NCBI GenBank assembly: GCA_963837165.1
Contig: CAWIMD010000008.1
Location: forward strand, 5,008-69,007
Length of the DNA: 64,000 nucleotides
Direction: 5' to 3'
From: Vicinamibacteria bacterium
Lineage (GTDB): Bacteria; Acidobacteriota; Vicinamibacteria; Vicinamibacterales; JAENWD01
This document shows, piece after piece, positions 1-53,984 of the stretch. Position 1 is the first letter of the stretch. Each line of letters opens with the position of its first letter. The position numbers and the translations under genes were made by a program. The notes under the pieces were generated by a model. The model was not told the DNA's origin and did no database searches. It saw nothing but the letters and a program-made list of their open reading frames with translations.

Positions 1-1
1 G

Positions 2-1534
2 AAGTACCTGCCCGAGACGCTCGGCTCGGGCGCGGCGTTCCTCGACTTCGACAACGACGGCTGGCAGGACGTGCTGCTCGTGAACGGCACGAGCTGGCCC
101 GGCCAGCCGCCGGCGCGCACGCACACCCGGCTGTACCGCAACCGCCACGACGGCACGTTCGACGACGTCACCGCGCGCGCCGGGCTGACCCTGGACCTGT
201 ACGGCATGGGCGTCGCCGTCGCCGACTACGACAACGACGGCTGGCAGGACATCCTGCTCACCGCCGTCGGCCAGAATCACCTGTTCCACAACACGGGCAC
301 GGGCACGTTCGTCGACGTGACCGACCGGGCAGGGCTCGGCCATCGACCGGGCTTCAGCACGTCGGCGCTCTGGTTCGACTTCGACCGCGACGGACGGCTG
401 GACCTGCTCGTCTGCAACTACGTCCGCTGGACGCCCGAGACGGACGTCTTCTGCAGCGTGGACGGGAAGCAGAAGTCCTACTGCACGCCGGAAGCGTATC
501 GCGGGACCACCTCCTGGCTGTTCCGAAACGCGGGGAACGGCACGTTCGAGGACGTCACGGCGAAGGCGGGCCTGTTCGATACCACCTCGAAGTCACTGGG
601 GGTCACGCTGATCGACTACGACCTGGACCCGTGGCCCGACGTCTTCGTCGCCAACGACACGCAGCCGAACAAGCTCTATCGAAACAACGGCAACGGCACG
701 TTCACCGAGCTGGGGCTCAAGGCCGGCCTGGCGTTCAGCGAGGATGGCCGCGCCCGCGCGGGGATGGGCGCCGATGCGGCCGACGTGGACAACTCCGGCA
801 CGACCACCGTCGTGGTCACGAACTTCTCGGGCGAGATGCTGGGCCTGTACCGGCCGGTCGGCGACGGTCAGTTCGCCGATGCGGCCCCGCGATCGGACGT
901 GGGCCGGGTCACCCGCGGCACGCTCGGCTTCGGGTGCTTCTTCTTCGACGTCGATCTGGACGGCCTGCAGGACCTGCTCGTCGTCAACGGCCACATCGAC
1001 GAGACCATCAGCCGCGTGAGCGCGCGCGTCACCTACGCGGAGCCGCCGCACCTCTTCCTCAACCGCGGGCACGGGCAGTTCACCGACGTCGCCCCCGAGG
1101 CCGGGAGCACCTTCGCCCAGCCGAAGGTCGGACGCGGCGCCGCATTCGGGGACTTCGACAACGACGGCGATCCGGACGTCGTCATCACGACCAACAACGG
1201 CCCGGCGTTCCTCTACAGGAACGATGCGCCGGCCGCGCGCCACTCGATCCGCGTGAAGCTGCGCGGGGTGAAGTCGAACCGCGACGGCATCGGCGCCCGC
1301 GTGCGGGTGTTCGCCGGGGACGACACGTACAGGCGGACGGTGAAAACCGGGTCGAGCTACCTGTCCCAGTCGGAGCTGCCCGTCACCTTCGGCCTGGGGT
1401 CCCATACCCGGGCCGATCGTCTTGTCGTCGAGTGGCCGAGCGGGACGAGGGACGAGATGACCGGCCTCGCCCCGGGCCGGATTTACGAGGTCACCGAGGG
1501 CAAGGGGGTCACGTCCACGACGGTGCTCCGATAG
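2..1534 (+). CDS. CRTAC1/ASPIC-UnbV family FG-GAP beta-propeller protein (5' end outside window)
   Basis: Frame is open from base 2 (KYLPETLGSGAAFLDFDNDGWQD). Repeated DxDxDGxxD motifs; C-terminal NRDGIGARV...GSSYLSQS...FGLG (ASPIC/UnbV). Confidence 0.9.
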   Translation, partial: KYLPETLGSGAAFLDFDNDGWQDVLLVNGTSWPGQPPARTHTRLYRNRHDGTFDDVTARAGLTLDLYGMGVAVADYDNDGWQDILLTAVGQNHLFHNTGTGTFVDVTDRAGLGHRPGFSTSALWFDFDRDGRLDLLVCNYVRWTPETDVFCSVDGKQKSYCTPEAYRGTTSWLFRNAGNGTFEDVTAKAGLFDTTSKSLGVTLIDYDLDPWPDVFVANDTQPNKLYRNNGNGTFTELGLKAGLAFSEDGRARAGMGADAADVDNSGTTTVVVTNFSGEMLGLYRPVGDGQFADAAPRSDVGRVTRGTLGFGCFFFDVDLDGLQDLLVVNGHIDETISRVSARVTYAEPPHLFLNRGHGQFTDVAPEAGSTFAQPKVGRGAAFGDFDNDGDPDVVITTNNGPAFLYRNDAPAARHSIRVKLRGVKSNRDGIGARVRVFAGDDTYRRTVKTGSSYLSQSELPVTFGLGSHTRADRLVVEWPSGTRDEMTGLAPGRIYEVTEGKGVTSTTVLR

Positions 1535-1562
1535 GTGCGAAAGCCCGGTTACACTACCGGAC

Positions 1563-51883: not shown

Positions 51884-51890
51884 ACCTGTC

Positions 51891-53984
51891 ATGACACGGG
51901 CATTCCTGATCGCCGTCGTCCCGCTCGTCGGCCTGCTCGGCCTGGGCCCGCAGGCACCGCCGCAGGGTCCACCCTCCTTCCGCGTCGGCGTCGACGCCGT
52001 CCGCATCGACGCCATCGTCACCGATAAGCACGGCCACGTCGTCACCGATCTGACCGCGGACGATTTCGAGCTGCGGCAGGACGGCGACCCGCAGGTGCTG
52101 ACGCTCGCGCAGTACGTGCGCGAGTCGGCGCCAGTGACGACCGGGAGCAGGACCACCCTCGCGGCGTCCGCGGCATCGCCCGCGGCTCCCCAGCCGCAGC
52201 ACCCGCTCGACGCCAACCGTGTCCAGCGCACGATCGCGCTCGTCGTGGACGACCTCGGCCTGTCGTGGGAGAGCATCCGCGACACGCGCAAGGCCATGCA
52301 CACGTTCATCGGCGACCGGGTTCAGCCGGGTGATCTGGTCGGCATCCTCCGGACCAGCACCTTCTCCGGGGCGCTGCAGCAGTTCACGACCGACAAGCAT
52401 CGGCTGCACGACATCGTGGACCAGGTGCGGTGGACGGCGCTGTCGCGGCGGCACGTGTCGGCGTTCCCCTCCAGCCCAAAGACGCACGGCAACTCGTACG
52501 GGGCCGCCGAGATGGACGCGCTCATCGCAAAGGCCAATGGCACGCCGGGGCCCGTCGAGGTCAACAAGGCGCTGGCCACGCTCAGCGCGCTGACCATGAT
52601 CGTCCAGGGCGCGCGGGAACTCCCCGGCCGGAAGGTCGTGGTTCTCTTGTCCGAGGGCTTCCGGCTGGATACAGAAGACCAGTTCACGGACCCGCGCATC
52701 CTCCGCAGGCTGGAACGCCTCTACGACCAGGCCGCGCGAGCCGGCGTCGTCATCTACACGCTCGACGTGCGCGGACTTCAGACGGGCTGCGACACGGCAG
52801 AGGACGGAGGAGGTATGGGAGGGTGCGGCGGCGACAAGCACAAACTGCTGTTCACCACCATGAACTCGCTGTGGGCCATCGCCCACGAAACCGGCGGACA
52901 GGCCATCGAGAACACCAACGATCTTGGCGGCGGCCTGGCCCGTGTGGACGAGGCCGAGCGCGGCTATTACATCCTCGGCTACACCCCGGCAGACGGGACG
53001 TTCGCCGGGAAGGGCAGGACGCCCCGCTTCCACAAGATCTCCCTGCGCGTGAAGCGCCCCGGTCTGCGCGTCCGCGTGCGGACGGGATTTCTCGGCGTGC
53101 CGGATGCACCGCGCGGCGAGCCGAAGACGCCTGGAGAGCGGATGATTGCCGCGGCGACCTCGCCGTTCGTGGCGACGACGATCCCCGTCCGGGCGACCGT
53201 CCTGCCGGCGTTCACGCGCGAAGACGGCAACTATCTCCGCGCGCTGCTCCACATCGACCTGAATGCGCTGACGACGACCCGAGGCGAGGACGGCCGGGAG
53301 ACGGTGACCGCCGATGTGCTCGCGCTCGTGTTCGACGAGTGGGGCGAGCTCATCTCGCGCAACGCCAACACGCTGACGATCGCATCGGAGTCGGCCGATG
53401 CCGGACTCTCCCGCGACGGCGGCATCGTGTACTCGCTGAAAGTGCCGGTGCCGCGGGCCGGCGGCTACCAGGTGCGCTTCTCCATCCGCGACCGGCAGTC
53501 CGGCGCGATTGGCTCGGCCGGACAGTACGTGGAGGTGGACGATGCCTCGCACGGCGCGTTCACGATTTCGGGCGTGCTGCTGGCCGAGGCACACGACCCA
53601 GGGGCGGGCAGCGACGCCCACGCGGACATCGATGACGCGACCGCCCCGTCGCCAGAGACACCCCGGGCCGATCCGACCCGGCGGGTCTTCGCACCCGGCG
53701 ACCGCCTCGTCTACACCTACGAAATCTACAACGCGCGCGAGGTCGTGGAGGCCGCGCCAAGCGTCTGGCATGACGGCATCCGGGTCTTCGCGGCGCCGGC
53801 CGACAGACTCGATTCCGGCCCGACGCCGGGCGGTCCCGTGAAGGTCGGCGGCGGCCTCCAGCTGACCGGGTCGATGGCGCCGGGCGACTACGTCTTCCAG
53901 CTGGCCGCCACGGCGAAGGGCGCGAAGGGACGGCGGCAGACCGTCGTCCGGCGGACGGATTTCGAAGTACGGCCGTCACCATGA
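51891..53984 (+). CDS. Acidobacterial-type VWA domain protein, close paralogue of 49796..51883
   Basis: Near-identical DNA over about 380 bp of the 5' region. Confidence 0.85.

Follow-up and report, generated by a model that had tools for sequence, protein, structure and literature searches.

A SusD-less TonB-dependent transporter cassette with a haem-propeller protein in Vicinamibacteria

The window analysed here, 64,000 nt from a Vicinamibacteria genome of 5.7 Mb (97% complete, approximately 69% GC; contig CAWIMD010000008.1, nt 5008–69,007), contained a conserved cassette headed by a TonB-dependent transporter (TBDT). The core of this cassette consisted of seven genes, encoding the TBDT, two tetratricopeptide repeat proteins (TPR1 and TPR2), two long von Willebrand factor A proteins (VWA2 and VWA1), a haem-propeller protein designated cytFG, and an ASPIC propeller with a twin-arginine translocation (Tat) signal. 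It was a real, bounded cassette without SusD, would be similar in its working to polysaccharide utilization loci (PULs) and to carbohydrate utilization loci containing TBDTs (CUT loci), and lay outside the SusC/SusD family. It is probably a glycan-linked import cassette.

Linkage and boundaries of the transporter cassette

Gene calling relied on a hexamer model derived from the source genome, gene names on Pfam and NCBIfam, and every count of named families in a first-pass annotation of this DNA turned out to be correct. The TBDT headed a minus-strand run of TPR1, TPR2, VWA2, and VWA1, with an IclR gene divergent from it; four VWA genes in addition to VWA1 and VWA2, all TIGR03436, five FG-GAP proteins (CRTAC1a, CRTAC1b, cytFG1, cytFG2, and a TPR-FG-GAP-ASPIC protein), and nine CxxCH motifs in four proteins (2 + 1 + 1 + 5) were present; and the DUF1549/1553-DUF1501 pair, the GMC gene with its Gluconate_2-dh3 partner, glycoside hydrolase (GH) family 127, and the GH140-like Apiosidase all had Pfam matches. 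The absence of a recognisable SusD (PF07980) was upheld both for the window and for the whole 97%-complete genome, the control being positive only in B. thetaiotaomicron.

The TBDT started at ATG 39,027, preceded by GAGGAG, and possessed the domains PF13620, PF07715 (24.0 bits; cut-off, 23.9), and PF25183. This architecture, a CarboxypepD_reg extension followed by plug and barrel in a genome that encodes TonB (12 TonB_C matches), is that of the Oar subclass as defined in the available part of PMC6434023. A PDB sequence search with the TBDT gave no match. In trees built with FastTree, which gives Shimodaira-Hasegawa (SH)-like support only, the VWA-linked TBDTs and a tandem paralogue formed one clade (22 of 77 rows, SH 100), and the TBDT of the window was far from SusC.

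Linkage was examined in a set of 79 TBDT loci, 25 at the level of orthologues (at least 40% identity) and 54 distant; kin among them are not independent, and counts of genomes and loci here and below are descriptive. In the loci with sufficient downstream DNA, the TBDT was followed by TPR in 21 of 21 orthologue versus 0 of 34 distant loci, by a long VWA gene in 20 of 20 versus 0 of 27, and by cytFG in 17 of 18 versus 0 of 27. In the source genome, 8 of the 14 ASPIC genes had a PF25183 TBDT no more than 10 kb away, versus 1.06 expected when TBDT positions were randomised 5000 times (p = 0.0002), and 7 of 11 without the window contig. The proposal that these families co-occur beyond their copy number was borne out for the core and for ASPIC with TBDT, but not for VWA genes genome-wide (4/41; 3.0 expected by the same randomisation), which tells against it.

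The families are numerous in this genome, with 14 ASPIC matches, 45 TIGR03436 matches (approximately 40 genes), 37 pieces of PF25183 (approximately 22 genes), CxxCH motifs in 69 of the 4641 called proteins, and two cytochrome c assembly matches; the available part of PMC3174227 lists the same families as expanded paralogue groups. These copy numbers would suit a chance pile-up of expanded families, and do fit the passengers and partly the accessories (Table 1), but linkage that is clade-specific and holds between orthologues refutes this explanation for the core, and as an account of the locus it is scarcely credible.

Among the 151 genomes of the class sample, at least 18 had a TBDT match at E ≤ 1e-150 (4 candidates per genome scored), spanning families f1, f5, f10, f14, and f17. 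Boundaries were surveyed with flanks of 20–100 kb in 19 genomes, six of which had 40 kb or less, so that the accessory counts in Table 1 are lower bounds. Six genomes shared the dnaX-recR-xylAB site of the window, and all cases of DUF1501, GH127, and GH140 were among these; away from this site the cassette occurred by itself, with unrelated flanks and frequently with a kinase/LuxR pair ahead of it. The 54 kb that the first-pass annotation had read as one undescribed PUL-like system was hence a family-level island of nested modules and passengers; what stands of that reading is the SusD-less cassette with its sugar link.

A paralogous TBDT’-TPR-VWA-VWA cassette (approximately 32% identity) often occurred in tandem with the main one (L041, L053, L054, L060, L063, L064, L127, and L164), and the source genome had four other TBDT-TPR-ASPIC runs. 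An apparent TBDT-TPR fusion in L038 was discounted: the TBDT there is in two pieces, and a frameshift is the likely cause. A record titled Bifidobacteriaceae (L059) carried a typical acidobacterial cassette with IclR and is probably a mislabelled or misbinned contig.

Table 1 Features of the window; fractions of 19 are genomes of the boundary survey
Feature	Class	Position (nt)	Strand	Remarks
TBDT	Core	35,407–39,027	-	Oar subclass: CarboxypepD_reg, Plug, PF25183 barrel; 1206 aa; ends YYF
Promoter-like elements TTGACT and TG-TATTAC, with predicted FadR-type operator GTGGTCAAACC at 39,059–39,068	Core	39,059–39,117	-	
TPR1	Core	33,983–35,197	-	Signal peptide, no lipobox; 19/19
TPR2	Core	32,757–33,986	-	4-nt overlap with TPR1 stop; 18/19
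VWA2 (TIGR03436)	Core	30,545–32,734	-	19/19
VWA1	Core	28,118–30,337	-	VWA2 paralogue (36%); 15/19
cytFG2	Core	26,526–28,193	+	Monohaem cytochrome c and 7-bladed VCBS propeller; convergent on VWA1
cytFG1	Core	24,744–26,273	+	cytFG2 paralogue (55%); model pLDDT 95.4
CRTAC1b	Core-associated	14,947–16,653	-	Tat-signal FG-GAP/ASPIC propeller; first gene of GMC-pair run
CRTAC1a, ASPIC propeller	Accessory	1–1534	+	Start precedes window; behind kinase/regulator pair; 6/19
GMC flavoprotein and Tat Gluconate_2-dh3 subunit	Accessory	12,468–14,895	-	FDH/GDH-alpha type; Cys motif for Fe-S cluster
Small TPR and small VWA, coupled pair	Accessory	22,736–24,717	+	Ahead of cytFG1; 3/19, also G095
IclR regulator	Accessory	39,592–40,386	+	4/25 orthologue loci
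Three tandem long VWA genes	Accessory	47,628–53,984	+	VWA4 and VWA5 71% identical
Pentahaem cytochrome c, membrane-anchored, C-terminal TPR	Separate module	40,643–43,552	+	
TPR-FG-GAP-ASPIC protein	Separate module/accessory	43,754–47,476	+	430-aa C-terminal domain of no known family
PSCyt1-DUF1549-DUF1553 dihaem protein and Tat DUF1501	Family-level accessory	17,842–22,520	+	4/19
GH127	Family-level accessory	7516–9540	+	2/19
Apiosidase/GH140-like	Weak accessory	1563–2999	+	1/19
NMT1-like binding protein and hybrid histidine kinase	Passenger	3004–5870	+	NMT1 0/19
M36 peptidase	Passenger	9732–12,326	-	0/19

A predicted operator and the sugar context

Alignment of the regions upstream of the TBDT genes showed conserved -35/-10-like boxes and the pattern GTGGTCA[AG]ACCTC. 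This pattern was present at 14 of 25 TBDT-orthologue promoters, 6 of which had been used in choosing the motif and 8 not, versus 0 of 40 distant TBDT promoters. With a matrix built from other genomes, 22 of the 2989 upstream regions of the source genome (divergent pairs counted twice) scored at least 14.5 bits versus 3.4 ± 1.9 in 20 dinucleotide shuffles; matches included 4 of 17 other TBDTs, 2 of 9 GMCs, and 2 of 27 Gfo genes, with 0 of 2 in the AP_endonuc_2 set, which has only 2 members. Two sites preceded a GntR-FCD gene whose neighbours are a KduD-like SDR gene and a DgoT-like MFS gene; others preceded eda, an SSS symporter, a GMC-G2DH3-AP_endonuc_2 run, and a Gfo-ApbE-3-keto-disaccharide hydrolase operon. 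Through the predicted operator the TBDT is linked with genes for catabolism of 3-keto-glycosides and 2-keto-3-deoxygluconate (KDG).

The GntR-FCD regulator (G000:C4:1284939; L204:2943–3734) was 86% to 91% identical in four relatives, and its 6 closest orthologues all kept the operator. Its sites are palindromes of the type TGGT-N-ACCA, which we take to be the FadR consensus; with such sites ahead of its own gene, it has the sequence features of an autoregulated FadR-subfamily regulator and is a candidate master regulator of sugar-acid and 3-keto-glycoside catabolism. A key regulatory role of the IclR gene divergent from the TBDT was not supported; this gene was found in 4 of 25 orthologue loci versus a kinase/LuxR pair ahead of the cassette in 9, and the operator points to the GntR/FadR gene elsewhere in the genome.

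Sugar-related genes also recurred as neighbours of the cassette or of cytFG. They were GH10, GH29, GH51, and Gfo; GH3-esterase, GH51, and GH9 with GH31; and a full 3-keto cluster (GH31, AP_endonuc_2, 3-keto hydrolase, and Gfo) and GH67; judged by their families, the flanking enzymes are of differing hemicellulose or pectin side-chain types in each lineage.

Several findings weigh against a sugar link of this breadth. None of the 9 loci with the kinase/LuxR pair had the operator, nor did any of the 7 promoters tried from distant families; a single one of 4 eda orthologues retained it; and within the window it was strong at the TBDT promoter only, other units reaching no more than 11.3 bits. The counts of carbohydrate-active enzyme (CAZyme) neighbours are raw, having no background rate for random genes, and 5 of 7 stand-alone flanks had no sugar genes (28 of 45 called genes scanned). 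Such flanks, together with RoxA-like cytochromes beside two cassettes, would suit a non-glycan substrate, that is, a metal complex or halide/peroxide chemistry, with sugar genes brought nearby by island effects; a candidate vanadium haloperoxidase-type gene after one Bacteroidota-type cytFG (L231:1794–3113), recognised by motifs that we take to be characteristic, points the same way. The operator statistics and the recurrence of differing hemicellulases in unrelated lineages argue against this explanation, which is clearly unlikely.

Probable periplasmic partners and the haem-propeller

A simple pattern scan, distinct from SignalP, detected no lipobox in TPR1, TPR2, VWA1 to VWA5, or cytFG1 and cytFG2. 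Because they carry plain signal peptides without a lipobox, the TPR and VWA proteins are likely periplasmic and not SusD-like lids, and a SusD-like role of theirs in surface capture was not supported; the TPR1 profile scored no more than 5.8 bits with two SusD sequences. TPR1 and TPR2 were fused in 4 of 60 longer matches (P0392–P0395), TPR-cytFG fusions made up 7 of the 16 long homologues scanned, and within the window TPR is fused to the pentahaem and ASPIC proteins; these recurrent fusions suggest that TPR serves as a docking module.

The model of VWA2 (predicted local distance difference test, pLDDT, 85.5) showed a VWA domain inserted in a beta-rich module and followed by two C-terminal Ig-like domains, with a degenerate metal ion-dependent adhesion site (MIDAS; D-R-L-S/T) and with BatB among its near structures (Z 18.6). 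VWA domains and FG-GAP propellers are the folds of the integrin headpiece, the candidate cargo has plain signal peptides, and the TBDT has the domain layout of Myxococcus Oar, which according to the available part of PMC6434023 is required for PopC secretion; the TBDT might accordingly be an Oar-like exporter of VWA and FG-GAP proteins that form an integrin-like surface adhesin. Beta-strands do flank the VWA domain, but integrin beta aligned with VWA2 over this domain only (rank 43, Z 15.6), the MIDAS is degenerate, and an integrin-like reading lacks specific support. The exporter explanation is very unlikely, with a sugar-catabolic operator at the TBDT, with rhamnose genes beside sister TBDTs, as at many of the distant loci, and with cytFG occurring beside SusC/SusD where no VWA was annotated.

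cytFG was located near the cassette in 17 of 19 genomes, and, conversely, 12 of 15 full-length cytFG loci had a TBDT, TPR, VWA, or ASPIC gene. Its AlphaFold2 model combined a helical haem domain with a seven-bladed propeller, and in an alignment of 118 sequences the CxxCH motif and W36 were essentially invariant. The closest solved structure was aldos-2-ulose dehydratase (AUDH; Z 33.3, rmsd 3.1, 364 residues aligned; next, 29.8), an enzyme of keto-sugars, which was also the best sequence match (E = 1.4e-7). All 5 Bacteroidota-type sequences kept C19, C22, H23, W36, M43, R217, Q295, E298, D350, D353, K358, and H361; inter-strand loop positions suggest that the polar ones among these (R217, Q295, E298, D350, D353, K358, and H361) lie on one face of the propeller. 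Among the 151 genomes, 34 had a cytFG match, 20 of them at E < 1e-160. Haem-less cytFG-like propellers of approximately 430 aa were seen at L139–L141 (G021, G106, and G013); in two cases the next gene encodes a single CxxCH, which may indicate a split form.

In Bacteroidota, Chondrinema litorale had a SusC-SusD-ASPIC-cytFG-cytFG locus and a SusC-SusD-GH127-GH127-cytFG locus, the latter with cytFG convergent as in the window; this context comes from one species, a metagenome scan with Bacteroidota cytFG having given 2 short loci.

Possible redox partners were less closely tied to the cassette. The GMC protein was closest to alpha subunits of fructose and glucose dehydrogenases (FDH/GDH), no cytochrome subunit gene was found in its run, and twin-arginine motifs were present in CRTAC1b, the GMC small subunit, and DUF1501. 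A search for PqqC gave no match in any genome, the controls included, and is therefore uninformative. The pentahaem-TPR gene was a separate, widespread module because an ASPIC gene lay within 6 kb in 17 of 20 loci but a TBDT within the same 20 kb in only 5; of the 151 genomes, 87 had this gene, mostly in single copy, among them 26 of the 27 from family f13. The seven-haem TPR gene of the source genome (C9:119438) was on a contig with no PF25183 match. Its hydrophobic helices carried His37 and His96 in 20 of 20 sequences, its haem-bearing region had six further invariant His, and a cytochrome b561 match at the N-terminus was below the cut-off (E = 0.011 and 0.11; 2 of 7); the transmembrane His are consistent with a membrane haem b, without proving one. 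Elsewhere, a cluster for Rieske protein, cytochrome b, octahaem, and monohaem proteins (L028, L033, and L131), not found in the source genome, adjoined cytFG in G128 and G140 and the TBDT in G002 (genus g37).

The following course of events is proposed. The TBDT would need no surface lid, in the manner of TBDT loci of Proteobacteria, and would import hemicellulose-derived oligosaccharides or glycosides for oxidation in the periplasm, where TPR1/TPR2 and VWA2/VWA1 would form a docking scaffold for propellers and cytochromes. The cytFG propeller would bind a sugar or keto-sugar and electrons would pass via its His/Met haem, the protein being either a dehydrogenase itself or the cytochrome that the LacA-like GMC pair lacks. 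From there electrons would reach the membrane by a lineage-specific route, through the haem b/pentahaem protein here and the Rieske-cytochrome b-octahaem cluster in genus g37. Electron removal by cytochromes, also suggested in the first-pass annotation, can reasonably be inferred; import followed by periplasmic oxidation, taken as a whole, is about as apt to be wrong as right. The widest form of the proposal, an undescribed acidobacterial import-and-oxidise envelope machine in which a TPR/VWA scaffold in the periplasm docks to a TBDT without a lid and holds a haem-propeller sugar oxidoreductase of a new class, this oxidoreductase sends electrons from hemicellulose fragments to the membrane, and the same propeller is an overlooked redox part of Bacteroidota PULs, is tentative and somewhat doubtful.

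Against oxidation stand several counts. Any GMC was near the cassette in 6 of 19 genomes and a close GMC orthologue in only 3, the pentahaem gene likewise in only 3; M43 was present in 58% of the 118 cytFG sequences, with G in 32%; His occupied the position of AUDH His155, reportedly catalytic, in 47% of them and in none of the 5 Bacteroidota sequences; and 14 of the 34 genomes with cytFG had a weaker, mostly propeller-only form. Such poor linkage and propeller-only forms would equally suit glycan import in which cytFG is a lectin, a sensor, or a keto-sugar lyase/dehydratase with a regulatory haem, TPR and VWA proteins serve assembly or quality control of the TBDT, and no electron chain exists, as would the non-redox fold neighbours of cytFG (AUDH, PVL lectins, polysaccharide lyase PL11 YesW, and CRTAC1) and the nearness of the VWA fold to BatB. 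This alternative is rather unlikely, as the haem motif is invariant across phyla, the monohaem-octahaem-cytochrome b-Rieske cluster abuts cytFG or the TBDT, and the catalytic His of AUDH is not conserved. For the last reason, and with 509 aa and no cupin or lectin domains, cytFG was rejected as an AUDH. AUDH and lectins belong to the VCBS superfamily according to the available part of PMC8023676, in which no haem fusion is mentioned.

Neighbouring features and comparison with known systems

Among the propellers, an orthologue of CRTAC1b (69% to 83% identity) was near the cassette in 12 of 19 genomes, and in the ASPIC tree CRTAC1a and CRTAC1b grouped with orthologues that adjoin cytFG or TBDT elsewhere; a large gene beside CRTAC1a in G015 and G114, considered as a kinase, was UvrA. 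The TPR-FG-GAP-ASPIC gene was near the cassette in 9 of 19 genomes and in 7 of 20 pentahaem loci, and its 430-aa domain (nt 45,830–47,140, with a GSSCP motif at the start) had no Pfam or PDB sequence match. The pair of pentahaem-TPR and ASPIC genes was highly conserved (53% to 64%; window and L143–L162).

The xylAB and kdgK genes noted near the cassette were present as loci, but xylA (Arthrobacter-type, nt 58,047–59,211) was split by a frameshift near nt 58,560, and the presumed kdgK, which starts at nt 63,346 and runs off the window, encoded only a KdgK-like PfkB kinase below the equivalog cut-offs. Frameshifts also occurred in loci of many relatives, which makes an assembly error plausible for xylA. 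A Ser/Thr kinase gene with TPR (nt 54,213–56,453) lay 7 nt before xylB and was kept at the xylB site in G151, G157, G051, and G039. Divergent from GH127 was a frameshifted gene for a secreted protein of approximately 520 aa (nt ~5919–7470, minus strand); neither half matched Pfam, and the 3′ half was not near the cassette in the 19 relatives. Repeats resembling repetitive extragenic palindromes, with the core GCAGGCCTTCAGGCCTGC and variants, occupied intergenic gaps (nt 26,274–26,525, 30,338–30,544, 35,198–35,406, and 43,553–43,753), and short tandem repeats were seen at nt ~22,520–22,660 and beyond 53,984.

Literature searches, whose coverage left out most subscription journals, found no description of the cassette. 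The Acidobacteriota, which abound in soil, have many TBDTs together with expanded VWA, TPR, and ASPIC families of unassigned role; the cassette gives these families a bounded context of seven genes, with a candidate operator, regulator, and substrate class, and singles out for direct assay an uncharacterised haem-propeller family that is shared with Bacteroidota PULs.

The nearest solved relatives of the pentahaem domain were tetrahaem cytochrome c552 (5ZE8; E = 6e-6) and OcwA (6I5B; E = 0.08), from which the protein differs by its membrane domain with two invariant His, its TPR tail, and its pairing with an ASPIC propeller. With AUDH (PDB 4A7K/4A7Y), cytFG shared a 7-bladed VCBS propeller and, in cytFG2, a His at the His155 position, but identity was 12% to 14% and the propeller of cytFG is joined to a DHC-like haem domain (3U99, E = 1.3e-4). 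M. xanthus Oar, as far as described in the available part of PMC6434023, has the same layout of N-terminal extension, plug, and barrel; here, in contrast, the operator and context are of sugar type and no protease cargo is linked (M36, 0/19).

The LacABC pathway for 3-keto-glycosides is periplasmic and cytochrome c-dependent according to the available parts of PMC8121099 and PMC9007349. Gene types of LacABC and BT2156-2160, namely GMC with Gluconate_2-dh3, Gfo/Idh/MocA, AP_endonuc_2, and DUF1080, share the operator or flank the cassette, and the GMC of the window has the Cys motif for an Fe-S cluster and a Tat small subunit; unlike LacABC, the pair has no adjacent cytochrome subunit, the likeness is by domain type only, and the cassette’s own proteins are not pathway members.

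In proteobacterial CUT loci, a lid-less TBDT is part of a sugar regulon with periplasmic processing. The cassette resembles them in its SusD-less TBDT with a sugar link, and to our knowledge a fixed TPR-TPR-VWA-VWA run with a haem-propeller is not part of CUT loci.

Compared with the SusC/SusD PULs of Bacteroidota, the cassette had neither SusC-SusD adjacency nor, by the pattern scan, surface lipoprotein glycan-binding partners, its partners being non-lipoprotein TPR and VWA proteins; its TBDT was distant from SusC, and its CAZymes were variable and not fixed neighbours. It resembled these PULs, however, in having a TBDT with a CarboxypepD_reg-type extension, nearby CAZymes (GH127 and GH140-like), and a linked regulator (IclR, histidine kinase/response regulator, GntR, or the operator), and cytFG and ASPIC propellers occur beside SusC/SusD as well.

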